Origin: Ruminococcaceae bacterium UBA2857
GTDB lineage: Bacteria; Bacillota; Clostridia; Oscillospirales; Acutalibacteraceae
Direction of reading: 5' to 3'
NCBI GenBank assembly: GCA_002350705.1
Contig: DEFH01000053.1
Location: forward strand, 127,801-191,800
Length of the DNA: 64,000 bases
Under the pieces are notes generated by a model. The model had not been told where the DNA came from, did not search any database, and saw only the letters and a program-made list of their open reading frames with translations. Shown here piece after piece: positions 20,038 to 52,601 of the stretch. Both the position numbers and the translations under genes were made by a program. Every line of letters begins with the position of its first letter. Positions within the stretch are counted from its first letter, which is position 1.

Positions 20038-20054
20038 CTCCTGTCAAAACAAAT

Positions 20055-21482: not shown

Positions 21483-21637
21483 TCTTATTTTAATATATCA
21501 AATTATGATAGTCAACCCTTTTTCACGACAGAGAACAGGCAATTTTTTTGTCATAAATTATGTTAAAAAATATGATAGACAAGATTGCTTGATAATGTTA
21601 TAATGAATTTGTATTATAAACTACGGGAGTTGGAAAG

Positions 21638-22417: not shown

Positions 22418-22426
22418 GGTGAAAAA

Positions 22427-23251
22427 ATGATGATAGATATTTCAAGGGAAGCGGTAGAAATTGTCAATCCTGTGATTAACAGGAGTCTGAGAACGGATGA
22501 TTTGGATGATGAGGAAATTTGTATTGATGTACGCAACGTGTCCGTACTGTTCAATCTCAGCAAAAACCGTGAAGACGGTCTGAAAGAATATTTTATTAAC
22601 AGAATTAAGGGCAAAGTGGGCTATGATGAATTCTGGGCACTGCGAAATATCAGCCTTCAGGTGCATAAAGGAGATGCCCTGGCTTTTATCGGACGCAACG
22701 GCTCAGGCAAATCCACTCTGCTGAAAACCATTGCAGGCATTATCAAGCCCACACGAGGCAGCATTACAGTCAACGGCACAATTGCACCGTTGATTGAAAT
22801 CAGCGGCGGTTTTGACCGTTCTCTTTCGGCAAGGGAAAATATCTTTCTTGTGGGAGCCATGCACGGACACACCAAAAAATATATGAAAAAGCGTTTTGAT
22901 GAAATTGTGGAATTTGCCGAAATACAGCGTTTTGTAGATGTGCCGATGAAAAACTATTCTTCGGGTATGGTGGCAAGACTGGGATTCGCACTGGCAACCT
23001 GTGTCAATGCAGATATTATCATTGCAGATGAAGTCCTGTCTGTCGGTGATGCCAAATTCCGCATGAAGTGTGAGGAACGTATTCAGCAAATGCTGAAAGC
23101 AGGAACCACGATTTTATATGTATCGCACAGTGCCGCACAGGTGAAAAAAATCTGCCGTACAGCGGTATGGCTTGACAAGGGACAAATTATTGATACGGGT
23201 ACGGCTGCGGAAATCAGTGATAAATATATGCAGTCTCTGAAAAAGGAATGA
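22427..23251 (+). CDS. ABC transporter ATP-binding protein (TagH/Wzt-like)
   Basis: Walker A 'GRNGSGKSTLL', signature 'YSSGMVARL', Walker B 'IIIADEVLSVGD'. Confidence 0.85.
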   Translation: MMIDISREAVEIVNPVINRSLRTDDLDDEEICIDVRNVSVLFNLSKNREDGLKEYFINRIKGKVGYDEFWALRNISLQVHKGDALAFIGRNGSGKSTLLKTIAGIIKPTRGSITVNGTIAPLIEISGGFDRSLSARENIFLVGAMHGHTKKYMKKRFDEIVEFAEIQRFVDVPMKNYSSGMVARLGFALATCVNADIIIADEVLSVGDAKFRMKCEERIQQMLKAGTTILYVSHSAAQVKKICRTAVWLDKGQIIDTGTAAEISDKYMQSLKKE

Positions 23252-23257
23252 TATAGT

Positions 23258-24364: not shown

Positions 24365-25629
24365 AAAAACAGCTCATCTGCATGGTTTTGATATTGGCAG
24401 CCGTTTGCTGTATGTTTGGTATCTGTGCCCATGCGGAAGAAGATCGGCTCACCATGAATATGGAAACCGTCAATCTTTATATAAACCAAAGCTATCAGCT
24501 CTGGGCAACGGGAACTACAGAAGAAGTTCTGTTTCACTCGGAAAATACCAAAATTGCCGAAGTCAGCGGTGACGGAGTCGTGACAGCTAAGGCTCTCGGC
24601 ACCACAAAAATTATTGTACAGACCGATTCGGGAATGACAGCAGAGTGTACCGTCAATGTTCTCAACGGTGTTTCTCCGAAAGAACTGATACTCAATACAC
24701 AGGATATTACGCTCAAAGAGGGAGAAAGCTACACTCTCAAAGCGGAAATCAAACCTGCCGAAGCAAGTCAGACAATGACTTTTACAAGCTCCGACAATGC
24801 CGTGGTACGGGTGGACAAGAACGGCTATATGAAAGCCCTCAAAGCGGGTGTGGCTGTCATTACCGTGACAACCTCCAGTGATGCCGTTTCCAAAAAGTGC
24901 ATTGTCAAAGTCAATGCCGATACAGAAACCGAACAAACAGCCGTTACGGTCAAAGGTTCTCTATACAGCATTACAGGCGAAAAAAAAACGCAGATGTTTG
25001 TGGAACTCCGCAATTCAAGCGGATTCAAGCGTGTGGAAACAGATGAAAACGGTATGTTTTCCGTTCAGAAAGTCAGGCAGGGAGATTATGCTTTGCTCGT
25101 GTACAAGGGCGAAAAGGATGTCAACCCCGTTTCCAAAGCACAGATTTCCGTTGGCATCTATCATCTGAATATTTCCTGTATTATGAACGGCAGTGAACTG
25201 GTTGTTTTGTATCAGAAAAACAATACCGATTCGGAAATCAAGGAATTGATTCTCACTTCCAAAGAAGTGTCCCTGCATAAAGGGGAAACTTATGATATGA
25301 ATTACTATGCACGTCCGTCAGGTGCGGTACTTCCCACCGTGATGGGCGTATCCCAGGATGAAACCATTGCAGCGGTAGATGCCGACGGACGTATTACAGC
25401 CCTTTCCGAGGGAAAAACAAGCATTACTTTTTCTACGCTGGACGGCAGACTCTCTCAGACGTGTCAGGTAGTTGTATCGGATTCCGACGGCAACCGATAC
25501 AGCGGAGTGATAATTGCTGTGGAAAGTATACTGTTACTGGTGTTTGTGGGAGGGTTTCTGATTCGCTATCGCAAATTTATGAAACGCAGGGAAAAAGAAG
25601 AATTTGGTTTTGATGAAGGAGATGAATGA
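24361..25629 (+). CDS. Big_2-domain protein with a signal peptide and a C-terminal TM anchor
   Basis: The signal peptide is 'MKKQLICMVLILAAVCCMFGICAHA'. There are three Big_2-like modules ('VTAKALGTTKIIV', 'MKALKAGVAVITV', 'ITALSEGKTSITF'). The C-terminus is 'GVIIAVESILLLVFVGGFLIRYRKF'. The start overlaps the GT4 stop. Confidence 0.6.
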   Translation: MKKQLICMVLILAAVCCMFGICAHAEEDRLTMNMETVNLYINQSYQLWATGTTEEVLFHSENTKIAEVSGDGVVTAKALGTTKIIVQTDSGMTAECTVNVLNGVSPKELILNTQDITLKEGESYTLKAEIKPAEASQTMTFTSSDNAVVRVDKNGYMKALKAGVAVITVTTSSDAVSKKCIVKVNADTETEQTAVTVKGSLYSITGEKKTQMFVELRNSSGFKRVETDENGMFSVQKVRQGDYALLVYKGEKDVNPVSKAQISVGIYHLNISCIMNGSELVVLYQKNNTDSEIKELILTSKEVSLHKGETYDMNYYARPSGAVLPTVMGVSQDETIAAVDADGRITALSEGKTSITFSTLDGRLSQTCQVVVSDSDGNRYSGVIIAVESILLLVFVGGFLIRYRKFMKRREKEEFGFDEGDE

Positions 25630-25630
25630 C

Positions 25631-26329
25631 ATGATTCTTGCAGGAATCGTGGCAGGCGGAACAGGCTCCCGTATGGGAAACAGTGAACTGCCAAAACAGT
25701 TTTTGGAGCTTGCGGATAAGCCTGTATGGATTTATACGACCGAAAAGTTTGTGCCATATACCGATTTTATCATCATTGGCATGAATCCCGACTGGCTGGA
25801 ATATGCACAGGCACAGAGACAAAAATATTTCCCCGACAGTGCCCCAATCGCAGTAATTGCGGGGGGTTCGGACAGGAATGAAACTGTCGGCAATATGATC
25901 GCTTTTGCACAACAGAATCTGCATTGTCAAAACAACGATATTATTTTAACACATGACGCTGTCAGACCGTTTGTGACAGAAAAAATGATACGGGACAGTC
26001 TTTCTCTCATTGAACAGTGTGATATTTGTACGACAGCTATTCCTGCCACAGATACGATTGCCGTATCACATGACGGCAGTTGTGCCGACAGTTTCCCCGA
26101 CCGTTCCGAAATGTTTCTGGTGCAGACTCCTCAGACATTCCGTATCGGTGATTTCAGCCGGATTTATGATACTCTTTCCGACGACGAAAAAAAAAGTGCG
26201 ACAGATGTGTGCCGTCTGTTTCAGTCCAGAGGAAAAAAGGTCATGCTTACACAGGGAAGTCCCTCCAATATCAAACTGACCTATCCGCAGGACTATCAGA
26301 CAGCTCAACTGATCGCAAAATCTTTTTAA
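25631..26329 (+). CDS. IspD/TarI family cytidylyltransferase (the context suggests an alditol-phosphate or sugar-phosphate cytidylyltransferase)
   Basis: 'ILAGIVAGGTGSRMGNSELPKQFL' is the IspD/TarI nucleotide-binding motif. ATG 25631 sits 9 nt after GAAGGAG. Confidence 0.8.
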   Translation: MILAGIVAGGTGSRMGNSELPKQFLELADKPVWIYTTEKFVPYTDFIIIGMNPDWLEYAQAQRQKYFPDSAPIAVIAGGSDRNETVGNMIAFAQQNLHCQNNDIILTHDAVRPFVTEKMIRDSLSLIEQCDICTTAIPATDTIAVSHDGSCADSFPDRSEMFLVQTPQTFRIGDFSRIYDTLSDDEKKSATDVCRLFQSRGKKVMLTQGSPSNIKLTYPQDYQTAQLIAKSF

Positions 26330-26859: not shown

Positions 26860-28839
26860 TTGTCAAAGCTGAAAATGAAAGCAGTCAGAATCATTGCTCT
26901 CAAACAGGACAGAAAACGTCTTCTGGAACATCTTCAGGACTCCGCTCTTGTCCATGTGAAGCATACAGAGGTACAGGACGGCTTTCAAAGAACGGATACC
27001 TCTTCACAGCTCCGACAGTTTGAAAAAAATGCGGAACTGATGGAAAAATCTCTCAAAATACTGGGCAATATTGCTCCCGAGAAAAAAGGATTTCTTTCAG
27101 GCTTTAAGGGCAGACGTGAGATTGACTCCGATGAAATCGGCAAAATTGCTCTCCAATCGGGCAGAATGATTGGAATATGCGGAAAAATCAGCAAGCTGGA
27201 TGCTCAGATAACAGACAATACGGCAGAACAGGCAAGAATCAGAACTTTGCTTGCTCAACTGGAACCTTGGAAAAAACTGGATATTCCGCTCAATACGTCA
27301 GATACGGCTTCTATGGCGGTGCTGATAGGTACGCTTCCAAAGGAATATGATGATACCTCTCTTGCGGAAGTGCTGGCGGAAAAAGATCCTGAATTGGTGT
27401 TTGAAACGGAAGTCATCTATTCTTCCTCTAACCTGACAAGCGTTGTGGTGTATACTCCTAAACAGCAGAAAGACCGTGCGGAGCTGCTTCTCAGAGGAAT
27501 CGGCTTTTCACGTCCCCTGAATCCGACTTCCAAAACGCCTCTTGACAAAGCAAAGCGTCTGACACAGAAAAGTGCGGATCTGAAAGAAAAAAATGAGGAA
27601 CTGAAAAACGAGATTGCAAAATATGCCGAATATCGTGACAGTATCCGTGATACACAGGACTATTTTGAGCTTCGTGCCGAAAAGTACAGAGTTATTGCAG
27701 AGCTTGACCAGTCAGAACATATTTTTGTACTGAACGGTTATATTCCGGAGGAAGACTGCGGAAAACTGGAAACCATCTGTCAGAAAATACCGTCATGTGT
27801 CCTGGAATTTGAGGAAGCAGATGAAAATGCTCCCGTTAAGCTCAAAAACAATAAGTTTGCGGAGCCTGCCGAGAGTATTGTGACGATGTATTCTCCTCCG
27901 TCACATGACGATATTGACCCGACTCCCGTACTGGCATTTTTCTTTTACTTTTTCTTTGGCATGATGTTTTCCGATGCAGGCTACGGACTGTTGTTAGTCA
28001 TTGCAACGGCTATCGGCATTAAAGTCTTCAAGCCTGACAAAAAAATGTATAACAATCTGAAACTGTTCCAGTATTGCGGTATTTCTACCATATTCTGGGG
28101 ACTGATTTTCGGCAGTGTGTTCGGTGATGCCCCTGTCGTATTCTACAAACTGTTCACGGGCAATGAGATTACCATGAAACAGTTGATGCCATGGATGCTC
28201 GATACACAAAAGGATGCCTTGTTCATTATGATTATGTCCATTGCCTTCGGACTGGTTCATGTACTTGTCGGAATGGGCTGTAAGTTCTATGTGTGTCTCA
28301 AACAGAAAAAATATGCGGAAGCCTTTTTTGATACAGGCTTGTGGATGATGTTGTTGGTGGGATTTGCCATTCTGGCGGCAGGCATGGCGATCGGTCAAAT
28401 ATTGGTATACATTGGTGCAGGCATTGCGATTGCCTGTGCAGTGGGACTTGTCCTGACGCAAGGCCGTGAAAAGAAAGGCATTTTCGGAAAACTGATCGGC
28501 GGTGTAGCCTCTTTGTATGACATTACCAGCTATGTCAGCGATTTGCTGAGTTATTCCAGACTGCTGGCTCTCGGTCTGACGACAGGCGTTATGGCACAGG
28601 TTTTCAATATGCTCTCTACTTTGATGGGAACAAGTGTCATCGGCATTCTCTTTATGATCGTGATTTTTATTGCAGGTCACGCTATCACCATCGGCTTGAA
28701 TGCACTCGGTTCGTATGTGCATACAATGCGTTTGCAGTATGTGGAAATGTTCAGTAAATTCTATGAGGGCGGCGGCAGGCCTTTTGAACCGTTCTCCCTC
28801 AAAAGCAAGAATTTTAAAATCAAAAATACAGATGATTAA
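26860..28839 (+). CDS. ntpI: V-type ATP synthase subunit I (a-subunit)
   Basis: A 659-aa protein with an N-terminal cytoplasmic coiled-coil half and a C-terminal polytopic half containing 'SYSRLLALGL'. The start is TTG 26860 or ATG 26875. Confidence 0.85.
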   Translation: MSKLKMKAVRIIALKQDRKRLLEHLQDSALVHVKHTEVQDGFQRTDTSSQLRQFEKNAELMEKSLKILGNIAPEKKGFLSGFKGRREIDSDEIGKIALQSGRMIGICGKISKLDAQITDNTAEQARIRTLLAQLEPWKKLDIPLNTSDTASMAVLIGTLPKEYDDTSLAEVLAEKDPELVFETEVIYSSSNLTSVVVYTPKQQKDRAELLLRGIGFSRPLNPTSKTPLDKAKRLTQKSADLKEKNEELKNEIAKYAEYRDSIRDTQDYFELRAEKYRVIAELDQSEHIFVLNGYIPEEDCGKLETICQKIPSCVLEFEEADENAPVKLKNNKFAEPAESIVTMYSPPSHDDIDPTPVLAFFFYFFFGMMFSDAGYGLLLVIATAIGIKVFKPDKKMYNNLKLFQYCGISTIFWGLIFGSVFGDAPVVFYKLFTGNEITMKQLMPWMLDTQKDALFIMIMSIAFGLVHVLVGMGCKFYVCLKQKKYAEAFFDTGLWMMLLVGFAILAAGMAIGQILVYIGAGIAIACAVGLVLTQGREKKGIFGKLIGGVASLYDITSYVSDLLSYSRLLALGLTTGVMAQVFNMLSTLMGTSVIGILFMIVIFIAGHAITIGLNALGSYVHTMRLQYVEMFSKFYEGGGRPFEPFSLKSKNFKIKNTDD

Positions 28840-28858
28840 TTATTGGAGGTAATTTATT

Positions 28859-29332
28859 ATGGGTATGATATTTACAATCGTTGGTATCGCAATCGCAACT
28901 GTTCTGGCAGGCATCGGCTCTGCCAAAGGTGTAGGAGCTGCTGCACAGGCAGCAATGGGAGTCCTTTCAGAGGATTCCTCTATGTTCGGTAAAATGCTGG
29001 TTCTGACACTTCTCCCCGGTACACAGGGACTTTACGGCTTTATCGTTGCCTTTCTGATGCTGATCGGTGCAGGCGTTCTCGGCGGGGGCGATACTGTTAC
29101 ATGGCAGCAGGGACTTGCTTATCTGGGAGCCTCTCTTTCCGTAGGTATCGGCGGTCTGGTATCGGGTATTGCACAGGGTAAAGCCGCTGTTGCAGGTATC
29201 AGTATGTGTGCAAAGGACGAAAAAAACTTCTCTAAAGCAATGGTTTCCATCACACTGGTTGAAATCTATGCACTTCTTGCTTTTATCGTTTCCCTGCTGA
29301 CCGTTATTTCCATCCCCAACATTACATTTTAA
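28859..29332 (+). CDS. ntpK: V-type ATP synthase subunit K (16-kDa proteolipid, c-ring)
   Basis: A double-hairpin proteolipid. 'GIGSAKGVG', 'LLPGTQGLYGF', 'SGIAQGK' and 'LVEIYALL' closely parallel Enterococcus hirae NtpK. Confidence 0.9.
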   Translation: MGMIFTIVGIAIATVLAGIGSAKGVGAAAQAAMGVLSEDSSMFGKMLVLTLLPGTQGLYGFIVAFLMLIGAGVLGGGDTVTWQQGLAYLGASLSVGIGGLVSGIAQGKAAVAGISMCAKDEKNFSKAMVSITLVEIYALLAFIVSLLTVISIPNITF

Positions 29333-29341
29333 TCAAAGGGT

Positions 29342-29935
29342 GTGCATGACATGAGCAACGGAGAAAAAATCCTGTCAGGAATCCGACAGGAATGTGATGA
29401 AAAAATAGCCGCTGTCAATGCCGAAACAGAAACCGCCTGTCAGGAAATTCTTGATTCGGCAAAAAAGCAGGCAAAGGAAATTACAGAAAGTGCCCGCTAT
29501 CAGCTGGAAGAACAGTCTGCGAAACTTTTGAAGGCTCACCAGAGCAAGAGTGCACTGGAAAAAAGAAATATGCTTCTCAAAACACGCAGAATGGAAATTG
29601 ACAAGGCAGTTCAGGCAATTTTGGCATATATGATCAATCTGCCGGATAAAGTGTATTTTGAACTTGTCTATCAGATGACAAAGCACATCAGTGAAAAAGA
29701 GGGCATTGTGTATTTTAATACCAAAGACCTTGCCAGAGTGCCGAAAAACTTTGAAAGCCGTCTTGCCGAAACGGGAATCCATGCGATTGTTTCCAAAGTG
29801 CCCGATGACAGCATTGAAAGCGGCTTTATCCTCAAAAACGGTGACATTGAGGAAAATATGAGCTTTGCATCCGTCATAGCAGAGAAACGTGAGGAAATGG
29901 AAGACCTGATTGGCAGAGAGCTGTTTAAAGCATAA
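29342..29935 (+). CDS. ntpE: V-type ATP synthase subunit E
   Basis: An N-terminal long helix plus a C-terminal globular domain, in the conserved operon position. The start is 29342 or 29351. Confidence 0.75.
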   Translation: MHDMSNGEKILSGIRQECDEKIAAVNAETETACQEILDSAKKQAKEITESARYQLEEQSAKLLKAHQSKSALEKRNMLLKTRRMEIDKAVQAILAYMINLPDKVYFELVYQMTKHISEKEGIVYFNTKDLARVPKNFESRLAETGIHAIVSKVPDDSIESGFILKNGDIEENMSFASVIAEKREEMEDLIGRELFKA

Positions 29936-29945
29936 GGAGGGGACT

Positions 29946-30911
29946 ATGGAATACGAATTTTCAATCGGTTCCGTAAGGGCAAAGGAAAAAAAATTGCTGT
30001 CCTCTTCGGATATAGACCAGATGCTTGCTTTTCGGAGTGAAAAAGAACTTGTGCGTTTTCTGAAGGACAAGGGGTTCGGTGACGGTGAAAGCATTGATGC
30101 ACTGCTGACAAGCAATACCGACAATATGTGGAAGTATATCAAAAGTATTGCTCCTGATATGGGCTTGTTTGAACCGTTCTGGGTGCAGAATGATATTCAT
30201 AATCTGAAAACGATCCTGAAAGGCGTGATGTCTGACAGAGATTATGCCCCTCTGCTGATTTTCCCTTGTACCATTGATACCCAAACCATGGTTCGGACAG
30301 TGGAAAACAGACGCTTTGACAAGCTTCCCGAATGGCTCGGCAGTGCCGCAGATACGGCTTACGGACTTCTGGCGGAAACCAAGGACGCAAGACTGAGTGA
30401 TGCTGTGATTGACAAAGCTGTGATGCAAAAATTGCTTACGGAAAGCAAAAAATCCAAATCTGTTTTTTTACGGCAGTATATCAAAAGACTTGTCTTTTAT
30501 GCGGATATCAAAATTGCACTGAGAGCCGCCAAAACAGGCAGTACCGAAAACTATCTCGAACAGGCATTGTGTGAAATTGACGGACTCGACAGAAAAAAAC
30601 TGATGACAAGTGCGTCTGCCGGTACGGAAACCCTCATAAAATATCTGGAAAAAATCGATTTGTACGACTGCAAAAAAGCAGTTGCCCTATATAAAAAATT
30701 CCCGTCGGAATTTGAAAAATTCGTGGACAACGGAACCATGACACTGACAAGGGAATTGTGCAGATTTTCCTGTTCGGGACCGGAACCGTTATTGGGCTAT
30801 TATATGGGCTGTGAGTGCGAACGGAAAATCATCAATATGATTGCGGGAGGCATCAAAACACAGACTCCTCCCGATAAAATAAGAGAAAGGCTGCGTGTAA
30901 CCTATGGTTAA
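29946..30911 (+). CDS. ntpC: V-type ATP synthase subunit C (d-subunit homolog)
   Basis: ATG 29946 follows AAGGAGGGG. The product is about 320 aa, helical, and in the conserved operon position. Confidence 0.8.
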   Translation: MEYEFSIGSVRAKEKKLLSSSDIDQMLAFRSEKELVRFLKDKGFGDGESIDALLTSNTDNMWKYIKSIAPDMGLFEPFWVQNDIHNLKTILKGVMSDRDYAPLLIFPCTIDTQTMVRTVENRRFDKLPEWLGSAADTAYGLLAETKDARLSDAVIDKAVMQKLLTESKKSKSVFLRQYIKRLVFYADIKIALRAAKTGSTENYLEQALCEIDGLDRKKLMTSASAGTETLIKYLEKIDLYDCKKAVALYKKFPSEFEKFVDNGTMTLTRELCRFSCSGPEPLLGYYMGCECERKIINMIAGGIKTQTPPDKIRERLRVTYG

Positions 30912-31227
30912 AAATATTGCCGTAATAGGCGACAGTGAAAGCATTAAAGGCTTCGGTGCAGTCGGAATTGATATGTATCTGTGTGACGAGCCGCAGGAAT
31001 CCGGCAATCTGCTCAAAAGAATCGCAGAGGGGGAGGACTATGCCATTATCTTTATGACAGAGGAACTCTTTGAACTCTCCGCAAAGGAAAGAAGCAAATT
31101 TGCCGAAAAGACTGTGCCTGCTGTCATTCCCATTCCCTCCGCAGGAGGCAACAGGGGGATTGGTCAAAAAAGACTGTCCCTGTTTGTAGAGCAGGCTGTC
31201 GGCTCAGATATTCTCTTTGGAAATTGA
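30904..31227 (+). CDS. V-type ATP synthase subunit F
   Basis: 'IAVIGDSESIKGFGAVGID...' over 107 aa is typical of subunit F. It overlaps the upstream gene's stop. Confidence 0.8.
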   Translation: MVKNIAVIGDSESIKGFGAVGIDMYLCDEPQESGNLLKRIAEGEDYAIIFMTEELFELSAKERSKFAEKTVPAVIPIPSAGGNRGIGQKRLSLFVEQAVGSDILFGN

Positions 31228-31237
31228 GGTGTAAATT

Positions 31238-33004
31238 TTGACAAACGGAGTTATTACAAAAGTCGCAGGACCTTTGGTCATTGCCGAGGGTATGCGTGAT
31301 GCAAATATGTTTGACGTGGTAAGAGTCAGCAAGGAAAGACTGATCGGTGAGATCATCGAAATGCACGGTGACAGAGCGTCTATCCAGGTCTATGAAGAAA
31401 CTTCCGGTCTTGGACCGGGTGAGGCGGTGGAGTCTACCGGACATCCTTTGTCGGTGGAGCTTGGTCCGGGTCTGATTGGTGCTATCTATGACGGTATCCA
31501 GAGACCGCTGAGCGAAATTATGAAAGTGGCAGGCAACACTTTGACAAGAGGTATTGAAGTACCGTCCCTTGACCATCACAAAAAATGGCATTTTGTCCCC
31601 AAAGTCAAAAAGGGTACCGAGGTGTCGGCCGGTGATGTTCTCGGTACCGTCAAGGAAACCAATGCGGTTATCCATAAAATTCTCGTGCCGAACGGCATGA
31701 AAGGCACTGTCCTCGAAATCAAAGAGGGCGACTTCACCATAGATGATACGGTTGCCGTTCTCGAAAACGATGGAAAGAAAACCAATGTACAGATGGCAGT
31801 GAAATGGCCTGTCCGTGTCGGCAGACCTTACAAAAGAAAACTCTCTCCCGATATTCTTCTGACAACCGGTCAGAGAACCATTGATACACTTTTCCCGATC
31901 GCCAAAGGCGGCGTGGCAGCCGTTCCGGGTCCTTTCGGTTCGGGAAAGACCGTTGTACAGCACCAGCTTGCAAAATGGGCAGCCGCTGATATTATCGTAT
32001 ACATTGGCTGCGGTGAGCGTGGCAACGAAATGACAGACGTTCTCAACGAGTTCCCGGAACTGAAAGATCCCCGTACAGGCAACTCTCTGATGGAGCGTAC
32101 CGTATTGATTGCCAATACATCCGATATGCCTGTTGCCGCCCGTGAAGCGTCTATTTATACAGGCATTACAATTGCAGAATATTTCCGTGATATGGGTTAT
32201 ACCGTAGCACTCATGGCAGACTCTACTTCCCGTTGGGCAGAGGCTCTGCGTGAAATGTCGGGCCGTCTGGAAGAAATGCCCGGTGAAGAAGGTTATCCGG
32301 CGTATCTGGGAAGCCGTCTGGCACAGTTCTATGAAAGAGCGGGACGTGTCATTGTCAACGGCAGTGATGATACAGAAGGTGCTTTGTCCGTTATCGGTGC
32401 GGTATCACCTCCGGGCGGTGATATTTCTGAGCCTGTTTCTCAGGCGACCCTGCGAATTGTCAAAGTATTCTGGGGACTGGATGCGGCTCTTGCCTATAAG
32501 AGACATTTCCCTGCCATTAACTGGCTGACAAGCTATTCCCTCTATACAGACCAGCTCGAAGACTGGTTTGCCGAAAACGCTTCTCCGGATTTCATGAAAC
32601 TGCGTGCAAGATTAATGTCTCTGCTGCAGGATGAGTCTGAATTGCAGGAAATTGTGAATCTGGTCGGTATGGATGCTCTTTCCGCAACCGACAGACTCAA
32701 GCTGGAAACAGCCCGTTCTATCCGTGAGGACTATCTGCACCAGAATGCATTTGATTCTGTTGATACCTATACTTCTCTGAAAAAGCAGGTTCTGATGATG
32801 AGAGCCATTCTCCTGTGCTATGATAAGTCTGTCGAGGCACTCAAAGACGGTGCCAATACAGAGCTGCTCATTGGAATGTCCGTGCGTGAGCGTGTCGGCA
32901 GATTCAAATATGAGGAAGAAACCAATATCGACAGAGAATTTGATGCGATCAGTGCCATGCTGGAAAAGGAAATCAAAGACGTTCTGGAAAGGAGTGAGGA
33001 CTGA
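31238..33004 (+). CDS. ntpA: V-type ATP synthase catalytic subunit A
   Basis: Walker A 'GPFGSGKTV', plus '[13 protein letters not shown]' and '[20 protein letters not shown]'. It has a TTG start. Confidence 0.95.
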
Positions 33005-34374
33005 TGCCAAAGGAATACCGTACCATAAGAGAGGTTGCCGGTCCTCTGATGATGGTAAGTGACGTGGAAGGCGTTACCTACAATGAACTCGGTGAAATTG
33101 AACTGCCCAACGGTGACATCCGTCGCTGTCAGGTACTGGAAATAGACGGAAAAAATGCTCTGGTACAGCTCTTTGAGTCTGCCGCAGGCATTAACCTTGC
33201 CCAGTCCAAAGTAAGATTTATCGGACGTTCGATGGAACTGCCTGTGTCATCGGATATGCTTTCACGAGTATTTGACGGTCTGGGCAACCCCATTGATGAC
33301 GGTCCCGCGATTATTCCCGAAAAAAGAATGGACATCAACGGTACGCCGATGAACCCTGCCGCCCGTGACTATCCGCAGGAGTTTATCCAGACCGGTGTCT
33401 CTGCCATAGACGGTCTGAACACTCTTGTAAGAGGCCAGAAACTGCCGATTTTCTCGGCATCCGGTCTGCCTCATGCGCAGCTTGCCGCACAGATCGCAAG
33501 ACAGGCGGCTGTGCGTGGCAAAAATGAACAGTTTGCGGTCGTTTTTGCGGCAATGGGTATCACTTATGAAGAATCCGAATATTTTGTCCGTTCGTTCCGT
33601 GAGACGGGGGCATTGGACAGAACCGTTATGTTTGTCAACCTTGCGAACGATCCGGCGATTGAGCGAATCGCTACTCCGAGAATGGCACTGACTGCCGCAG
33701 AGTATCTTGCATTTGATTTGGGAATGCACGTGCTTGTCATTATGACAGACATCACCAACTATGCAGACGCTCTTCGTGAAGTCTCCGCCGCACGAAAGGA
33801 AGTTCCCGGCAGACGTGGCTATCCGGGTTATATGTACACCAACCTTGCCACACTTTATGAACGTGCCGGCAGACAAAAAGGAAAAAATGGTTCCATTACC
33901 ATGATTCCGATTCTGACCATGCCCGAAGATGACAAGACTCATCCGATTCCCGATCTGACAGGCTATATTACGGAAGGTCAGATTATCCTGAGCCGTGAGC
34001 TTTACAGAAAAGGCATTACGCCGCCTATTGATGTATTGCCATCCCTGTCCCGTCTGAAAGATAAGGGTATCGGTGTGGGAAGAACAAGAGAAGACCATGC
34101 TGCTACTATGAATCAGCTTTTCTCAGCCTATGCGAGAGGCAAGGACGCAAGAGAACTGATGATCGTGCTTGGCGAGTCTGCTCTGACAGATATTGACAAA
34201 AAATATGCCGAGTTTGCAGAGGCTTTTGAAAAAGAGTATGTATCACAGGGCTATCAGACCAACCGTACCATTGAACAGACACTGGATATCGGCTGGAAAC
34301 TGCTGCATATTCTGCCGAGAAGTGAATTAAAGAGAATCAAAGATGATATGCTTGACAAATACTATGGAAAGTAA
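33004..34374 (+). CDS. ntpB: V-type ATP synthase subunit B
   Basis: '[15 protein letters not shown]', '[29 protein letters not shown]' and '[15 protein letters not shown]'. Confidence 0.95.
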
Positions 34375-34386
34375 GGTGTTGAGTGT

Positions 34387-35046
34387 ATGGCAGTGATGAA
34401 CGTAAACCCGACAAGAATGCAGATGACCAAGCTCAAAAAACAACTGCAAATTGCAAGGCGTGGTCATAAAATGCTGAAAGATAAGCGTGATGAACTGATG
34501 CGTCAGTTTATCGAGCTTGTCAGACAGAATAAACAGCTCCGTGAAAAAGTCGAAGCACAACTCGAAAACTGTAATCATCACTTTATCAATGCCAGTGCGG
34601 TAATGAGCAAACAGGCGATGGAATCGTCCCTGATGTCCTCCAAACATCAGACAGGCATTGATGTCGGTGAAAAAAATATCATGAGTGTTGATGTACCGCT
34701 GTTTTCACAAGTACACGGCAGTGATGATGAGGGAGAAATTTTTCCTTACGGATTTGCTTTCACATCGTTTGAACTGGATGATGCGGTGTCGTCTTTGAAC
34801 AGTGTGCTGCCTGATTTGATAAAACTGGCGGAAATTGAAAAAAGCTGTGAACTGATGGCGGCTGAAATCGAGCGTACCAGAAGACGAGTGAATTCTTTGG
34901 AACACGTGATGATTCCACGTTACGAGGAGACTATCAAATATATTGCCATGAAGCTGGAAGAAAACGACAGAAGCAGCCGTACACGCTTGATGAAAGTCAA
35001 GGATATGCTGCTGGAAAAAGCTCATAATTACTCTGAGAAATATTGA
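34387..35046 (+). CDS. ntpD: V-type ATP synthase subunit D
   Basis: 'NVNPTRMQMTKLKKQLQIARRGHKMLKDKRDEL' is the canonical subunit D N-terminus. Confidence 0.9.
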   Translation: MAVMNVNPTRMQMTKLKKQLQIARRGHKMLKDKRDELMRQFIELVRQNKQLREKVEAQLENCNHHFINASAVMSKQAMESSLMSSKHQTGIDVGEKNIMSVDVPLFSQVHGSDDEGEIFPYGFAFTSFELDDAVSSLNSVLPDLIKLAEIEKSCELMAAEIERTRRRVNSLEHVMIPRYEETIKYIAMKLEENDRSSRTRLMKVKDMLLEKAHNYSEKY

Positions 35047-43970: not shown

Positions 43971-44633
43971 TTATAATCCGTTTATCAAATCGGATAAATA
44001 CTGATCCCAGTCGTATTCGGTCAATCGTTCAAAGTAGTCAACATATCCGGAAGAATTGATACATTTCAATTCCTTACTTTCGGCGATATATTCAAATATA
44101 TCTTTTCGGCTTGTTATCTCACCATATGTATAAGTAACTGTCATACCATTGATGGTATAGGTGCCTTCACTGAAAACATGACTGCCCTCATTTGAGATAC
44201 GAGCTGTTCCGTCGGAGCGGAAAATATATATCAATGAGGAGGTATCTACCTTCATATCTTGACCTTGTGAGTTAATAAAATGTGTCATCATCCATGAACC
44301 GACAATATCTGATTGAGACAGTGTTTCCTGAATAGTGGAATGTTGTTGGTAGTAATCTTCATAGTAGGAAGATGGTCTTTGATAGCCGTTAAATGATGAT
44401 TCCTGATTGTTGATTTCGGAAGTGGTTTGAGAGCTTTCCGGTTTGCTGATTTCGGAAGCAGTTTGAGAGCTTTCCGGTTTGCTGATTTCAGAATTCATTT
44501 GAGAGTTTTCTTCTATATCGGGTATGTCAGAAAAAACAGAAATTTGTTCGGAAATTTCCTTGTCATTTCCGCAGCCGGATGTCAGGGTACATGAAAGCGT
44601 ACATACCATTAAAGCAATTATTATCTTTTTCAT
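43971..44633 (-). CDS. lipoprotein with a Ser/Glu-rich tandem repeat linker and a lipocalin-like C-terminal domain
   Basis: The lipobox is 'LTSGCGN'. 'SEISKPESSQTA' repeats are present. The family of the C-terminal beta-rich domain is not certain. Confidence 0.55.
   Translation of the reverse strand: MKKIIIALMVCTLSCTLTSGCGNDKEISEQISVFSDIPDIEENSQMNSEISKPESSQTASEISKPESSQTTSEINNQESSFNGYQRPSSYYEDYYQQHSTIQETLSQSDIVGSWMMTHFINSQGQDMKVDTSSLIYIFRSDGTARISNEGSHVFSEGTYTINGMTVTYTYGEITSRKDIFEYIAESKELKCINSSGYVDYFERLTEYDWDQYLSDLINGL
44411..44510. repeat. 36-nt tandem repeat (about 2.8 copies) in the lipoprotein linker
   Basis: TGATTTCGGAAG(T/C)(G/A)GTTTGAGAGCTTTCCGGTTTGC occurs twice, followed by a degenerate third copy. 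Confidence 0.8.
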
Positions 44634-44663: not shown

Positions 44664-45395
44664 TTAAATTTTTTCTAACAATACTTTCTTTTTTTCGTTG
44701 AATTCCTCTTCTGTAAGAATCCCCATTGTTTTTAACCGATCCAACTTTTCAAGCTGTGCAAATATATCATTTTCTGATGAAGTTTCCTTTTTGGTGTTTT
44801 GAAATTGTTCGGTAATATTATGCTGTCGGAGCAGTGCCATCAACTCACGGCACGTGGCGGCCTGCTGATAGATATTGATACCTGTCATCATTTCTATTCT
44901 TAAGGTAAGCTTTTGTCCTTCTGCGTCTGTATAAAAGATACAGATCACATTTTCCTGCTGCTGGTTGGCATTGTCTCCTGCACCAAGAAGAATTTCTTCT
45001 GTACTGATGGTTCTTTTTTCGATTGTCAGCTCTGAAATCTGATGGTAGGGAATATCGTAATCGTTGAACCAGTCTTTTGTTCCGATTGTTGGCCTGAAAG
45101 CGAAGTGATCAGGCATGATGTTCATACCGATAAATCCGGATTTCTTTTTAGGGTATGCCGGAATACCGCCAATATAGGCAACGGTATATCGTTTGATAGC
45201 TTCCTCTAACGGCTGTGCCAGTTCTTTTCTTGTACTGTTCCATTCCTTCATTTTAGCGGAACTTTCACCAACGGATTTTTTGACGGAATCCCTGACAGAG
45301 GAGAATTTTTCGGAAATCTGATACTGTTCTGAAAAATTGGTTGCTTTTTCCTTTGCCTTAGAAGCTGATTGTTTGATTTTGTCCATGAATCCCAT
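44664..45395 (-). CDS. SHOCT-domain protein with a PH-like middle region
   Basis: The C-terminal 'DIFAQLEKLDRLKTMGILTEEEFNEKKKVLLEKI' fits the SHOCT pattern. Confidence 0.55.
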   Translation of the reverse strand: MGFMDKIKQSASKAKEKATNFSEQYQISEKFSSVRDSVKKSVGESSAKMKEWNSTRKELAQPLEEAIKRYTVAYIGGIPAYPKKKSGFIGMNIMPDHFAFRPTIGTKDWFNDYDIPYHQISELTIEKRTISTEEILLGAGDNANQQQENVICIFYTDAEGQKLTLRIEMMTGINIYQQAATCRELMALLRQHNITEQFQNTKKETSSENDIFAQLEKLDRLKTMGILTEEEFNEKKKVLLEKI

Positions 45396-45633: not shown

Positions 45634-46281
45634 TCATTGTGACAGTACAACATTTTTCAGGTCAGTGCTTTGGCTTGTCTGATAAGCTTGTTCTTCAAAG
45701 GAATAATCGGCTTGGTCGGGATTACGGGAACTTTTTGTTTTAACCAGCAGTTTTCTGATGAGATAATCGGTCAGCTTGGGATTTCTGACAAGCAGAGGTC
45801 CTATTATATAGGTAAGAAGAAAGTTATCTTCCAGAATTATTTTTTCGTCACAGTCAAGAGTGCCTCTGTGATTTTCAAAACCGATAATATTACTGTCAAA
45901 CAGGGGTGTTTTGAGGCAGACATCACAGACAGTTCTTTCTTCCGGATAAGTAACGGTATAATCAAAGATACCGAGAGCAGATTTTCCGAAAAGTTCAATA
46001 CTGTTGCCTGTTGCCACAAGAAAGCCGCCATTTGCTTTGTATGCAGCAATGTCTTTTTTGTAGGGGAGAATATCTTCCAGAGCAAGCTTCAGATTATTTT
46101 CCGTACCTGAGCCGACAAATACAATGTCGTAATCAGCAAAATTGATTTTGTCACCGAAACGGAGTTTGTCTAATGTAATTTCTTCACCGATTTCACACAA
46201 ATGATAGGCAAGTGCTTTGACATTGCCCGTATCACCGTAGAGATTCAGCAGGTCATCATAAATATTTGCAATTTTTATCAC
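45634..46281 (-). CDS. gatD: GatD-like (CobQ-type GATase) subunit of lipid II isoglutaminyl synthase, with the catalytic residues substituted
   Basis: 'NLYGDTGN', 'IGFENHRG' and its position after murT identify the family. The nucleophile region reads 'FLVATGNSIELFGK' with no Cys, and the His region reads 'TYIIGPLL' with no His. Confidence 0.7.
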   Translation of the reverse strand: MIKIANIYDDLLNLYGDTGNVKALAYHLCEIGEEITLDKLRFGDKINFADYDIVFVGSGTENNLKLALEDILPYKKDIAAYKANGGFLVATGNSIELFGKSALGIFDYTVTYPEERTVCDVCLKTPLFDSNIIGFENHRGTLDCDEKIILEDNFLLTYIIGPLLVRNPKLTDYLIRKLLVKTKSSRNPDQADYSFEEQAYQTSQSTDLKNVVLSQ

Positions 46282-46292
46282 GGAAAATCACC

Positions 46293-47624
46293 TCATTCTA
46301 TTTCATTCACAGAGTTGATGAAGGGTTCAATATAGTCAAAGTTCAGGATACCGTAAACATTTCCCTTTGTCTGTTCCTCAAAGACCTTTCCTGCATGGTC
46401 GAGATTGTCAAGGATAATGATTTTGTCTTTGGGAATCCCTGCCAGCATGATTCTTGCGGCAAAGTCAAACCGATAGGGACCGGCACAGACAACATTTTGC
46501 AGAGTATCATCATTGAGCAGTTCAAAATTGATGTCATACAGCCATGACAAATCAAAGAAAGTATATCTTCTGCTGATTTCACGCAAGCCCAGGACAATCG
46601 TTTTCGGAGACTTGTCAAGAGCCGTATGTATGACAGCCAGATTATAAGTCGCATTGTTTTCGGCTTTGCAGTTAAGGGCAATGTATTTGCGGTCTTTTTT
46701 GACGATTTCCTGATAGATTTTATTTTGGATGTGCTGGGCATTGAGGGAAGAAGCAATCTTATCTTCCGTGATTCCCGCAAGACTTAACACCGCATAAGCA
46801 GCGGCCATATTATACAGATTGAAAAGAATCAGTTCATTTGCTGTCATTTTGACTTTGTTGTTGACGGTGATTTCATTCGTATCTTTATTAACAGAGGTGA
46901 TGCAGAAATCGGGAATATTTCTTGCAAAACCGCAGTTCGGACATTTGAAATCTCCCACACTGCCGTAATGCCTGTAAGAATAGGTAAGCCTTGCATGACA
47001 TTTCGGGCAATAGTTTCTGTCACGGACATCATTCAACTCATTATCATAGCTTGCAAAAAACCTGTCAATGCCGAAATAGGTAATATGTTCCTTATGCAGA
47101 GAAAAGCTTTTTGTGACAGGATCATCCCCGTTGACAATGAGATGGGTGCTCTCAGGGATGCCTTTTAAGATTTCACCGGCTACAATATCAAAGTCGCCCT
47201 GTCTGGGAGGCTGGTCACGGGTGATATTGTTGATTACAAGATAGTCGGGTGTAATATATTTGGTAATGAGTTTCAGATAGCGTTCATCCACTTCCAGAAC
47301 AAGGGATTCCTGCTTGAGCTTGCCTGAAAAGGAGATGTGCTTAATCACGGTAGAGGCAACACCATTGAGCAGATTGGAACCCTCCAGATTATGAGCCACA
47401 CTTGTACCGTTTTCACGCAGAGCATCTGCAATAATTCTTGTGGTAGAGCCTTTTCCGCAGCTTCCCGTCACCATAACGGTGAGTTTCGGATATTGTACGG
47501 TTTTGAGATAGCCGGGGAAAACTGTCAGAACAGCTTTTCCGGGGAAACTGCTTGCATTTTTATGCAGGAGTTTTTCTGCCAGAAAGACCGCCTTTCCCAA
47601 GAGAGTGCCTAAAAATCGTTTCAC
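46293..47624 (-). CDS. murT: MurT-like Mur ligase family protein (lipid II isoglutaminyl synthase ligase subunit)
   Basis: The Mur-ligase P-loop region is 'VTGSCGKGSTT'. Also present are 'EVDE', 'TRDQ', the four-Cys ribbon 'CPKCHARLTYSYRHYGSVGDFKCPNCG' and the C-terminal 'FDLSWLYD' (DUF1727-like). Confidence 0.8.
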   Translation of the reverse strand: MKRFLGTLLGKAVFLAEKLLHKNASSFPGKAVLTVFPGYLKTVQYPKLTVMVTGSCGKGSTTRIIADALRENGTSVAHNLEGSNLLNGVASTVIKHISFSGKLKQESLVLEVDERYLKLITKYITPDYLVINNITRDQPPRQGDFDIVAGEILKGIPESTHLIVNGDDPVTKSFSLHKEHITYFGIDRFFASYDNELNDVRDRNYCPKCHARLTYSYRHYGSVGDFKCPNCGFARNIPDFCITSVNKDTNEITVNNKVKMTANELILFNLYNMAAAYAVLSLAGITEDKIASSLNAQHIQNKIYQEIVKKDRKYIALNCKAENNATYNLAVIHTALDKSPKTIVLGLREISRRYTFFDLSWLYDINFELLNDDTLQNVVCAGPYRFDFAARIMLAGIPKDKIIILDNLDHAGKVFEEQTKGNVYGILNFDYIEPFINSVNEIE

Positions 47625-47819
47625 AAAATATCCACCCTTTTTTAATCAGATAACAGATTATACTATAGCACAAAATCAGAAAAATTACAGTAACTATTCC
47701 AAAAAAAAAAGCAAAAATTTTGATACGCTGCCTGCCAAAATTTTGTTAAAAATATTTGACCGTTGCGGATTGCCGTGAGGGATTTTTGAAAGGACTGCCT
47801 GAAAAATCGCTGAACAATA

Positions 47820-47903: not shown

Positions 47904-49801
<1,898 letters not shown>

Positions 49802-50381: not shown

Positions 50382-50861
50382 ATGAAAAAGTTATATTTGC
50401 TGCCCACCGGGAATAAGTATTTAGAAAAGTTTTTGGAATGGAGAGATGATTTGATGAAAGGCGAGGGCAGTAAATCCGTACCAAATCTATCTAAAATGAT
50501 GAAATGTATCGGTTTCGGTGCAGTGGCAGGAATCATTCTGACATTGCTGTTTACATTGCTGGGAGCATTCGCAATGGTGAAAATGGAGACGGTGATGTAT
50601 CCGGCAGTCATGCCTTTGGCAGTGGCAGCAGTGTGTCTGGGAAGTTTCGGGGGCGGCTATCTGACGGCAAGACTTCATCAGAGCATGGGAATGGCTGTGG
50701 GAGCCTTATGTGCAGTGGCGGTATTTGTCATTTTTTTGGGACTGGGAGCCGTGTTTGGCAGTCAGTTGGGAGTCGTTTCGCTGCTGAGAGCAGTGCCGGC
50801 GGTGATTTCGGGAGCAATCGGCGGAATTTTGGGTGTCAACAGGCGAAAAAGAAGAAAATAA
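50382..50861 (+). CDS. TIGR04086-like small membrane protein
   Basis: Gly/Ala-rich TM helices ('GFGAVAGIILTLLFTLLGAF', 'AVPAVISGAIGGILG') end in RRKRRK. The true start is probably internal (about 50454 or later). Confidence 0.5.
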   Translation: MKKLYLLPTGNKYLEKFLEWRDDLMKGEGSKSVPNLSKMMKCIGFGAVAGIILTLLFTLLGAFAMVKMETVMYPAVMPLAVAAVCLGSFGGGYLTARLHQSMGMAVGALCAVAVFVIFLGLGAVFGSQLGVVSLLRAVPAVISGAIGGILGVNRRKRRK

Positions 50862-50956
50862 TGTTTGAATTTATCGAAAAGATATGGTATGATAAAGATG
50901 TATACTACCGGCTGCTGAAAAAATGTGTTCGGGGCTGTGAAGAAAGGGTGATTTTC

Positions 50957-51103
50957 GTGAAGGCAACAAAGCATATCAAAACTTTGAACAATGCGAATCT
51001 GAAGGAGTCCGCTGTAAAGGGCGGCTGCGGTGAATGTCAGGCTTCCTGTCAGTCAGCCTGCAAAACTTCCTGCACAGTTGCAAACCAGAAGTGCGAGAAG
51101 TGA
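50957..51103 (+). CDS. scfA: six-cysteine ranthipeptide precursor SCIFF
   Basis: GTG at 50957 sits about 7 nt after AAAGGGTG. The 48-aa product '(M)KATKHIKTLNNANLKESAVKGGCGECQASCQSACKTSCTVANQKCEK' matches the highly conserved SCIFF sequence and has exactly six Cys. In the track it is buried in the 3' end of ORF 50504..51103. Confidence 0.85.
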   Translation: MKATKHIKTLNNANLKESAVKGGCGECQASCQSACKTSCTVANQKCEK

Positions 51104-51131
51104 TTGTAAAGACAAAATGCAATCTGAATGT

Positions 51132-51160
51132 AAAAGGCGGATGGTTTTGTCCGCCTTTTA
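51132..51160 (+). terminator. hairpin between precursor and maturase genes (partial terminator/attenuator)
   Basis: AAAAGGCGGA-tggttttg-TCCGCCTTTT. Confidence 0.5.
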
Positions 51161-51188
51161 TAATTGCCGATTTAGGGGGATTTATAAA

Positions 51189-52601
51189 ATGATACACAAA
51201 TATCAACTGAACGGATATAATATATGTCTGGATGTACACAGCGGAGCCGTACACGTTCTGGATGACATAGCGTATGATGTGCTGGACTACTGCGGAGAAA
51301 ATATGACCGAAAAGGCACCTGAAATCATGTATACCGAACTTTCGGAAAAGTATGACAGGGACGAACTGACGGAAACCTATGCGGCTTTGTATGAGCTGTA
51401 TGAAATGGGACAGCTTTTCTCACCCGATGATTATGAGCAGTTTGCCGATCTGATGACAAAAGCACCTATCAAGTCCATGTGCATTAATATTTCTCATGAC
51501 TGCAACCTGAGATGTGAATACTGCTTTGCGGCAAAGGGAGATTTCGGTCAGGGAAGATGTCTGATGTCGTTTGAAACGGCTAAAAAAGCCATTGATTTTA
51601 TCATAGCCAATTCGAGTACAAGACATAATCTGGAAGTGGATTTCTTTGGCGGTGAGCCGCTGATGAATTTTGAAGTCGTGAAACAGACCGTTGAATATGC
51701 AAGGAGCATTGAAAAACAGCACAACAAGAATTTCCGTTTCACGATCACAACCAACGGACTTCTGCTGGATGATGAAAAGATTGATTATATCAACAAAGAA
51801 ATGTCCAATGTCGTGCTGTCGCTTGACGGACGAAAGGAAATCAATGATAAACTGAGAGTCACTCCGAACGGAAAAGGCTGTTATGATATTATTGTTCCGA
51901 AATATCAGAAATTGGTTTCCGAAAGAGGCGACAAAGATTATTATGTGCGTGGCACGTTCACGACTTTCAGTGAAGATTTCACGGCAGATGTTATGCACAT
52001 GAAAAGCCTTGGCTTTGACCAGATTTCCATAGAGCCTGTTGTGTCTGATCCGAAGCTTGATTATTCTATTAAATACGAGGATTTGCCGAAAGTGTTCAAT
52101 GAGTATGAAAAGCTCGCCAAAACGGTTATCGAAACAAGACAAAAAGGCGATTTCTTCAATTTCTTCCATTTCATGATAGACTTGAATCAGGGACCTTGTG
52201 CCATCAAGAGATTAAGAGGATGCGGCTGCGGCAATGAATACGTTGCAGTGACACCGCAGGGAGATATTTATCCGTGTCATCAGTTTGTCGGACAGGAAGA
52301 ATATAAAATGGGCAATCTGAATGACGGCACTTTTGACAATGATATGAAATTGCGCTTTGCGAAAGCCAATGTCTATTCCAAAGAAAACTGTAAAAACTGC
52401 TGGGCAAAATTCTATTGCAGCGGCGGCTGCAATGCCAACAACTTCCAGTATGAAGGCGATATTCTGAAATCCCATAAGGTCGGCTGTGAACTGGAGAAAA
52501 AGCGTCTGGAATGTGCTATCATGATAAAAGCGGCACTGGCTGACAGCGGCGTCGAAAATGCATCCTGCGACGGTGAAGACTGTTTTGTGGAGTGCCATTA
52601 A
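51189..52601 (+). CDS. scfB: radical SAM/SPASM thioether-forming SCIFF peptide maturase
   Basis: ATG 51189 follows GGGGGA. 'CNLRCEYCF' is the radical SAM CxxxCxxC motif, and the Cys-rich SPASM C-terminus reads 'CGCGNEY...CHQF', 'CKNCWAKFYCSGGC'. It lies directly downstream of scfA. Confidence 0.85.
   Translation: MIHKYQLNGYNICLDVHSGAVHVLDDIAYDVLDYCGENMTEKAPEIMYTELSEKYDRDELTETYAALYELYEMGQLFSPDDYEQFADLMTKAPIKSMCINISHDCNLRCEYCFAAKGDFGQGRCLMSFETAKKAIDFIIANSSTRHNLEVDFFGGEPLMNFEVVKQTVEYARSIEKQHNKNFRFTITTNGLLLDDEKIDYINKEMSNVVLSLDGRKEINDKLRVTPNGKGCYDIIVPKYQKLVSERGDKDYYVRGTFTTFSEDFTADVMHMKSLGFDQISIEPVVSDPKLDYSIKYEDLPKVFNEYEKLAKTVIETRQKGDFFNFFHFMIDLNQGPCAIKRLRGCGCGNEYVAVTPQGDIYPCHQFVGQEEYKMGNLNDGTFDNDMKLRFAKANVYSKENCKNCWAKFYCSGGCNANNFQYEGDILKSHKVGCELEKKRLECAIMIKAALADSGVENASCDGEDCFVECH

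Follow-up and report, generated by a model that had tools for sequence, protein, structure and literature searches.

A MurT/GatD subfamily of gut and rumen Firmicutes whose GatD-like subunit lacks the catalytic cysteine and histidine

In a 64,000-nucleotide stretch of the genome of Ruminococcaceae bacterium UBA2857 (contig DEFH01000053.1, positions 127,801 to 191,800; hereafter the window), two adjacent genes are clearly homologous to murT and gatD, which encode the lipid II isoglutaminyl synthase, and the GatD-like subunit has Thr91 and Ile160 in place of the catalytic Cys and His. Sequence comparisons indicate that this replacement is the defining trait of a large, old, monophyletic and widespread MurT/GatD subfamily, which we call Thr-type (TGN). 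Full-text literature searches on MurT/GatD, together with structural and phylogenetic studies of the family, gave no mention of a Cys-less GatD clade, and the branch is apparently undescribed. The archaeal 'MurT-like' clade is distinct from it and has no GatD whatsoever (PMC11915815). The size and conservation of the clade would surprise a specialist, although its most probable mechanism has clear precedents. MurT/GatD is essential and a candidate drug target in staphylococci, streptococci and mycobacteria, and D-Glu amidation controls transpeptidation as well as host NOD sensing of peptidoglycan fragments.

Homology of the pair to MurT/GatD

The first-pass annotation of the window had recognized a MurT/GatD pair from gene order and motifs. 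Both open reading frames and every motif that it quoted were confirmed, including EVDE (with E111) and R136-D-Q in the MurT-like protein, and N13-LYGDTGN, G134-FENHRG, L88-VATGNSIELFGK and T157-YIIGPLL in the GatD-like protein. The genes are co-directional, are separated by an 11-nt gap and both start with GTG. Because the ribosome-binding site (RBS) of gatD-like overlaps the stop codon of murT-like, the two are predicted to be translationally coupled in a two-gene operon.

The MurT-like protein matches Pfam PF08353 MurT_C (57.9 bits) and PF08245 Mur_ligase_M (36.4 bits) and aligns over its full length (residues 6-440) with S. aureus MurT in the PDB (E 1e-44). The GatD-like protein scores 34.5 bits with PF07685 GATase_3, just over the cut-off of 27. 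The MurT and GatD equivalogs are the top NCBIfam matches of the two proteins, despite scores below cut-off: 186.9 and 169.7 bits with NF052464/NF045635 (cut-off 800) for the MurT-like protein, and 74.3 and 69.7 bits with NF045636/NF052463 (cut-offs 400 and 450) for its partner. These values amount to about one quarter of the MurT cut-off and less than one fifth of the GatD cut-offs.

The AlphaFold2 model of the GatD-like protein (mean pLDDT 93.9) includes the extra C-terminal helix (helices 194-210). Its nearest PDB structure is S. aureus GatD (6gs2_A, TM-score 0.84), and GatD chains from the complexes of S. aureus, S. pyogenes and S. pneumoniae lead the structural matches (TM-score 0.78-0.84, query-normalized).

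Loss of the catalytic cysteine and histidine

Pairwise, multiple and profile-profile alignments and the structure model agree that the nucleophilic Cys and the catalytic His are gone, as the first-pass annotation had proposed. In a phmmer comparison with PDB sequences, GatD chains 9sq9_C of S. pyogenes and 6fqb_E of S. pneumoniae have I-C-G-G opposite A-T91-G-N, and S. aureus GatD has TYLHGP opposite TYI-I160-GP. The comparison with known structures that the annotation had recommended has Thr91 and Ile160 in the Cys and His columns. Both equivalences recurred when 45 relatives were aligned with 20 canonical GatDs in hhalign (Prob 100, E 7.6e-51). In the AlphaFold2 model, T91 occupies the nucleophile elbow, with strand 87-90 before it and helix 92-98 after it. 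Where class I glutamine amidotransferases (GATases) have a Cys nucleophile at the elbow and a His base, this subunit has Thr91 and Ile160, and no conserved Cys was found at any position of the protein in the alignments of its relatives. T91, G92, N93 and R116 are invariant across the 45 aligned relatives.

S. aureus GatD loses its glutaminase activity, or the complex its glutamine-dependent amidation, upon the substitutions C94A/S/G or H189A (PMC5871853, PMC6113224, PMC3266927). From these dead mutants and the loss of both residues it follows that a Cys-His glutaminase mechanism is excluded for the GatD-like subunit, and the earlier prediction that it cannot hydrolyse glutamine holds for that mechanism. 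Since the Cys and the His are missing and the equivalog cut-offs are not reached, we conclude that the pair should not be filed as a glutamine-hydrolysing MurT/GatD. For Thr-type carriers, automatic labels such as 'glutamine-hydrolysing' synthase or 'glutamine amidotransferase' would give the wrong mechanism.

The A-T-G-N-S-I segment resembles the T-G-G-T-I motif of asparaginases. We regard this likeness as a coincidence, as few residues match and no fold relationship was shown.

Distribution of the Thr-type subfamily

The substitutions had initially been framed as a peculiarity of this one subunit, together with the suggestion to survey orthologs; that survey found the same Cys and His substitutions in most relatives. 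The 120 best homologues reach down to 40% identity; 118 of them have Thr91, 119 have G92 and N93, 118 have E96 and 115 have Ile160. A scan of species-representative genomes gave 577 relatives, of which the best 80 were analysed together with five copies of the window's own locus (85 loci). The GatD open reading frame combines [AS]TGN[SA]xELFG with a His-less Y-x-[ILVT]-G-P loop in 63 of these loci (58 without the five own copies), whereas 22 are canonical, with A[VI]CGGYQLLG and TYLHGP. We also surveyed a library of 1.84 billion representatives: Thr occupies the nucleophile column in 126 of the nearest 150 clusters at 50% identity, and only a handful are canonical.

Thr-type carriers are chiefly metagenome-assembled genomes (MAGs) of gut and rumen Firmicutes, labelled as Clostridiales, Ruminococcus, Acutalibacteraceae, Oscillospiraceae/Faecalibacterium, Erysipelotrichaceae, 'Bacilli', 'Tenericutes' or 'Mollicutes'. 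Genomes from these same habitats, gut and rumen, also contain canonical Cys/His pairs. Six MAGs labelled 'uncultured Muribaculaceae' (Bacteroidota) also carry a Firmicutes-type pair (L021, L024, L026, L042, L047 and L048); in two of them (L042 and L047) the synteny around the pair is Bacilli-like (era, ybeY, pheS), and the Muribaculaceae bin labels look doubtful.

The MurT-like partner

The murT gene lies directly 5' of gatD in all 85 loci (five being copies of the window's locus). In a neighbour-joining tree of 78 MurTs, the partners of Thr-type GatDs (57/57) fall on one side of a clean bipartition and none of the 21 canonical MurTs is found there. The two groups are equally deep, with mean internal distances of 0.585 for the Thr-type partners and 0.581 for the canonical sample. 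One uncultured Bacilli gut MAG carries two Thr-type pairs arranged head to head (L065:2188-6663), one on the minus strand at approximately 2188-4251 and the other on the plus strand at approximately 4597-6663. Their MurTs are not sister sequences in the tree, so that an old duplication or a transfer is suggested, possibly with a division of labour.

Both MurT clades (57 Thr-type, 21 canonical) share the acceptor Asn of G-x-N, the D-E magnesium ligand, R-D-Q, the four Cys of the zinc ribbon and D-x-S-W-[IL]-Y-D. The acceptor Asn corresponds to S. pneumoniae Asn85, which is essential (PMC6085368), and the D-E magnesium ligand to S. aureus E108. In the window's protein, K58 (P-loop), E111 (magnesium) and N84 (acceptor) align with S. 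aureus MurT and are kept in the 57 subfamily MurTs. D358 aligns with Asp349 of the inter-subunit triad, within the D-x-S-W element kept in both clades.

The P-loop differs between the clades, with TGSxGKGS in the 57 MurTs that partner a Thr-type GatD and GTNGKT in the 21 canonical ones. The first-pass annotation had called GSCGKGST atypical. The motif is no sign of decay, however, because it is conserved throughout the subfamily and is of the G-x-x-G-K-G-S type found in FolC/FPGS, an active ligase of the Mur-ligase superfamily: the P-loop of L. casei FPGS (1fgs_A), found with an FPGS-like probe, reads GTNGKGS. A PDB search with the P-loop fragment of the MurT-like protein did not retrieve FolC. 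The likeness ends at the P-loop region. The NCBIfam folC and PgsB models recognize only this segment, TIGR01499 (folC) giving 15.9 bits against a cut-off of 162.65 over residues 49-77, so that a whole-protein FolC match fails; in addition, FolC has neither a GatD partner nor the zinc ribbon. Collectively, the MurT-like partner looks catalytically complete and appears, from these comparisons, to have co-evolved with its GatD.

Retained and lost elements of the GatD-like subunit

In Thr-type GatDs the elements that face MurT persist while the glutaminase-specific ones are gone. The window's subunit keeps the loop and helix L-Y-x-D-L-L-N-L-Y-G-[DE]-x-G-N at its N terminus, with G19, a small residue that is required at the S. 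aureus interface. It also keeps the MurT-contact loop G161-P162-L-L-x-R166-N-P, equivalent to S. aureus G190, P191 and K195, whose interface roles have been described (PMC6113224), and A199 in the extra C-terminal helix, equivalent to S. aureus A228. On the MurT side, D-x-S-W-[IL]-Y-D holds the equivalents of the S. aureus interface residues S351, I353 and Y354. The interface match to S. aureus thus comprises G19, G161, P162, R166 and A199 of GatD together with S360, L362 and Y363 of MurT. Conversely, the oxyanion-strand G-G-G has become G-S-G, and the G-K-V..G-x-G-N loop is weakly conserved in the subfamily and deleted in the window's subunit (18 residues). The former His column is freely hydrophobic across the subfamily, with I, L, T or V.

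Purifying selection acts on the two genes, with dN/dS relative to the closest relative of 0.10 for gatD-like and 0.06 for murT-like. Across divergence bins, the ratio of GatD to MurT identity is 1.04-1.35 in canonical pairs and 0.82-1.09 in Thr-type pairs, which indicates that the GatD-like subunit is less constrained than a catalytic GatD, yet far from neutral. Continued physical coupling of the two subunits is supported by a natural single-chain fusion of a MurT with a Thr-type GatD outside the window (P0247, 793 aa; Mur_ligase_M, MurT_C, GATase_3). Domain fusions were searched for a functional hint and consisted of MurT-GatD fusions only, with no extra domains. Canonical MurT-GatD fusions also occur (P0240 and loci L066, L068 and L083).

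Compared with the characterized MurT/GatD complexes (S. aureus 6gs2/6h5e, S. pneumoniae 6fqb, S. pyogenes 9sq9), the pair is alike in its two-gene operon with the same gene order, the GATase_3 fold with the extra C-terminal helix, the Asp349 equivalent and the core interface. It differs in Cys94 to Thr, His189 to Ile, GGG to GSG and the shortened GKV..G.GN loop on the GatD side, and in GxxGKGS for GTNGKT, SRRY for DNAAD and a separate clade on the MurT side. CobQ/CobB-type proteins belong to the same Pfam family, GATase_3, and share with GatD the HGP-type dyad architecture (PMC5871853); unlike the GatD-like subunit, they retain both Cys and His, and their fusion partner is a different ATPase domain.

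Proposed mechanism and alternatives

What could such a pair do? The reading that we favour, and to which we give an even chance, is that it is an ATP-dependent complex that amidates the D-Glu of lipid II with free ammonia, the GatD-like subunit being an obligatory non-catalytic partner. It starts from three observations: the catalytic residues are lost, the MurT inventory and the interface are retained, and the two genes show the selection pattern described above. The MurT-like subunit would form an acyl-phosphate on the D-Glu alpha-carboxyl of lipid II, which ammonia would attack. The GatD-like subunit would be a pseudo-glutaminase, retained since MurT needs a partner to fold into or reach its active state. 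Its remodelled site, T-G-N-[SA]-x-[ED], might latch onto the retained MurT Asp or form an entry point for NH3/NH4+, and Thr91 and Asn93 could replace His as hydrogen-bond partner of that Asp. Lipid II D-Glu as the substrate, ammonia as the nitrogen donor and a scaffold role for the GatD-like subunit are inferred, the donor from precedent only.

Two precedents bear on this mechanism. In S. aureus, the complex of MurT and GatD-C94G can no longer amidate lipid II with glutamine, yet still does so with NH3 at pH 8.5 (Munch et al. 2012, PMC3266927). The dead subunit is still required in that complex: MurT alone is inactive with either donor, which means that GatD is structurally needed (PMC3266927). 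GatD-C94G is a laboratory equivalent of what the Thr-type subfamily looks like, although it is an engineered single substitution, whereas in the natural subfamily the entire site is remodelled and the MurT partner has co-evolved with it. The second precedent is human CPS1, an ammonia-specific enzyme in which a glutaminase-like domain persists in inactive form, with Ser at the Cys position; this class I GATase module, lacking the catalytic Cys as in gatD-like, serves structurally within a synthetase fed by free ammonia (PMC4655335). CPS1 differs in being an ATP-grasp synthetase and not a Mur ligase, in having the domain fused and in keeping the His. The first-pass annotation had already suggested a structural partner for a MurT that uses free ammonia. 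This is the best-supported mechanism, with GatD-C94G as its precedent, and it stays conditional.

Several points weigh against ammonia-fed amidation. The NH3-dependent activity of the S. aureus complex was seen only at pH 8.5 (PMC3266927). Canonical Cys/His pairs occupy the same ammonia-rich gut and rumen habitats, so that habitat fails to explain the Cys/His change, and the earlier appeal to an ammonia-rich environment is weak. The replaced site is itself conserved: among 126 Thr-type representatives, G92 is kept in 124, N93 in 109, E/D96 in 100, R116 in 107 and Tyr15 in 117. A dead scaffold would leave the conservation of T-G-N-[SA]-x-[ED] and R116 unexplained. This strong conservation had been overlooked in the first-pass annotation. 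On the MurT side, the group consensus of the Thr-type partners has a conserved basic SRRY in place of DNAAD, which could signal a different substrate.

These last points lead to a different ligation chemistry, which we consider unlikely but worth setting out. The MurT-like subunit would activate a carboxylate of a peptidoglycan precursor, be it the alpha-carboxyl of D-Glu or a different one, and join it to an amino acid, a diamine or some other amine in place of ammonia, and the GatD-like subunit would bind or present this amine or act simply as a scaffold. The former glutamine site would then owe its strictly conserved motif and substrate-capturing Arg to this role, and the deep separate clade of the MurT partners and the hint of sub-functionalization given by the MAG with two head-to-head pairs would also fit. 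Several carriers are labelled Erysipelotrichaceae, a group that includes B-type peptidoglycans cross-linked via the D-Glu alpha-carboxyl, and we know of no ligase assigned to that cross-linking step. SRRY lies at the DNAAD position, where MurE reads the incoming amino acid and where a D342-R235 salt bridge forms at the interface (PMC6113224). On the other hand, constraint on the GatD-like subunit, measured against its MurT, is weaker than on a catalytic GatD, and the loops around the old site are shortened or deleted (by 18 residues in the window's protein). Moreover, the neighbours in 84 loci are lineage-specific housekeeping genes and include no amino-acid supply, racemase or Fem-type genes, and no alternative substrate could be identified from sequence. 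In its most specific form, which we put forward only tentatively and hold to be rather unlikely, the TGN subfamily would be no ammonia-using version of MurT/GatD but a distinct peptidoglycan-tailoring ligase. Its co-evolved MurT, with the GKGS P-loop and SRRY, would attach the amine to the D-Glu alpha-carboxyl or to a further carboxyl of the stem peptide, and the GatD-like T-G-N-x-x-E/R116 pocket would bind or present that amine or sense glutamine. If so, it would be a candidate for peptidoglycan modifications such as B-type cross-bridges or substituted alpha-amides of D-Glu in many uncultured Firmicutes of the gut; to our knowledge, no enzyme has been assigned to these.

It is improbable that the GatD-like subunit is still a hydrolase in which Thr91, activated by E96, D17 or the MurT Asp, serves as nucleophile and releases ammonia from glutamine or another amide. 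The Thr lies exactly at the nucleophile elbow of the model and is shared by 118 of 120 close homologues, and G92, N93, E/D96, the lid Tyr15, Arg116 and the MurT Asp are conserved as well. Against this, no general base that could replace the His is conserved, its column holding I, L, T or V, and the relative constraint on the subunit is relaxed. Where hydrolases of the class I GATase fold are known to rely on a hydroxyl nucleophile (the Ser of S51 and S66 peptidases), the His is retained. Even the conservative C94S substitution kills the activity of S. aureus GatD (PMC6113224).

There is a similarly slim chance that the pair works outside peptidoglycan synthesis, either as a regulatory or sensor complex (for example one that binds glutamine and does not hydrolyse it) or as a ligase for an unrelated carboxylate. 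Scores far under the NCBIfam equivalog cut-offs, the occurrence in some MAGs labelled Tenericutes or Mollicutes and the retention of R116 without a nucleophile would be compatible with such a role. Yet the full catalytic and lipid II-type architecture of MurT is kept (no UDP domain, the acceptor Asn, the zinc ribbon). Where neighbours of the pair are informative, in some carriers, they include sporulation genes such as spoVA and yqfD, which mark those hosts as peptidoglycan makers, and the window's host carries putative genes for a cell-envelope polymer.

Finally, an artefact is practically out of the question, since the identical protein occurs on 12 contigs from independent samples and the Thr in 118 of 120 homologues and 58 further loci, which rejects a sequencing or assembly error, and since intact frames, RBSs and the low dN/dS of both genes reject a decaying pseudogene.

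Either the solution of CPS1, a dead glutaminase on an ammonia-fed synthetase, has been repeated in cell-wall synthesis, or the scaffold has been recruited to a new chemistry. The walls of abundant, largely uncultured gut and rumen Firmicutes may thus be built, and sensed by the host, differently from those of model organisms. The Thr-type family is a natural experiment on why MurT needs GatD, and this question is directly testable.

Genomic context

The features of the pair are listed in Table 1. A search of the 64-kb window by tblastn with canonical and own queries found no second, canonical murT/gatD. Clustering of the neighbours in 84 loci showed only lineage-specific housekeeping and sporulation synteny (era, psd, pssA, spoVA, pheST, ybeY) and no functional link.

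Table 1. Coordinates of the murT-like and gatD-like genes and of their sequence features in the window
Feature	Position	Strand	Basis or remark
murT-like gene, 443 aa	46293-47624	minus	Pfam Mur_ligase_M and MurT_C; no N-terminal UDP-binding domain
gatD-like gene, 215 aa	45634-46281	minus	GATase_3 fold without catalytic Cys and His
RBS GGGTGG of murT-like, 7 nt 5' of the GTG start	47632-47637	minus	Sequence inspection
RBS GAGGTG of gatD-like, overlapping the murT-like TGA stop (46293-46295)	46289-46294	minus	Sequence inspection
murT-like P-loop G54-S-C-G-K-G-S-T61, FolC-type GxxGKGS	47442-47465	minus	Group comparison
murT-like Cys4 zinc ribbon C206, C209, C228, C231	46932-47009	minus	S. aureus MurT alignment; ribbon in both clades
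murT-like S351-R-R-Y354, subfamily-specific, in place of DNAAD	46563-46574	minus	Group consensus comparison
murT-like D358, equivalent of S. aureus MurT Asp349, context D-L-S-W-L-Y-D	46551-46553	minus	Counted from HMMER alignment
gatD-like T91-G-N-S-I-E-L-F-G99, former nucleophile elbow, Thr for Cys	45985-46011	minus	Alignments
gatD-like T157-Y-I-I160-G-P162, Ile160 for catalytic His	45796-45813	minus	Alignments
gatD-like R116, equivalent of S. aureus GatD Arg128 (glutamine-capturing Arg)	45934-45936	minus	Counted from alignment

Elsewhere in the window, positions 18874-26329 hold what look like cell-envelope glycopolymer genes, judged by open reading frame sizes and N-terminal sequences only: an ABC-2 export pair, glycosyltransferases and a cytidylyltransferase-like gene. 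This putative cluster is a hint of a Gram-positive-type envelope in the host. A V-type ATPase operon follows at 26860-35046 (plus strand).

Close to the pair, a 243-aa protein with a C-terminal SHOCT domain is encoded at 44664-45395, 238 nt 3' of gatD-like on the same (minus) strand; its gene is not kept beside the pair in other lineages. At 43971-44633 (minus strand) lies the gene of a predicted lipoprotein with a signal peptide, a lipobox Cys and tandem Ser/Thr/Gln-rich repeats (…SEISKPESSQTASEISKPESSQTTSEI…), for which Pfam gave no match. On the other side, divergent from murT-like, a gene at 47904-48671 (plus strand) encodes a 255-aa Imm33-like protein (PF24719) whose C-terminal tail is rich in Ala, Glu and Lys. 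The stop codon of this gene and the ATG of tgt (48671) overlap, an arrangement kept in all of the five contigs shown for the species. Further downstream, at 50861-52601 (plus strand), a SCIFF (six-Cys-in-forty-five) peptide gene is followed by that of its radical-SAM/SPASM maturase, a marker of Clostridia that supports where the host is placed taxonomically.

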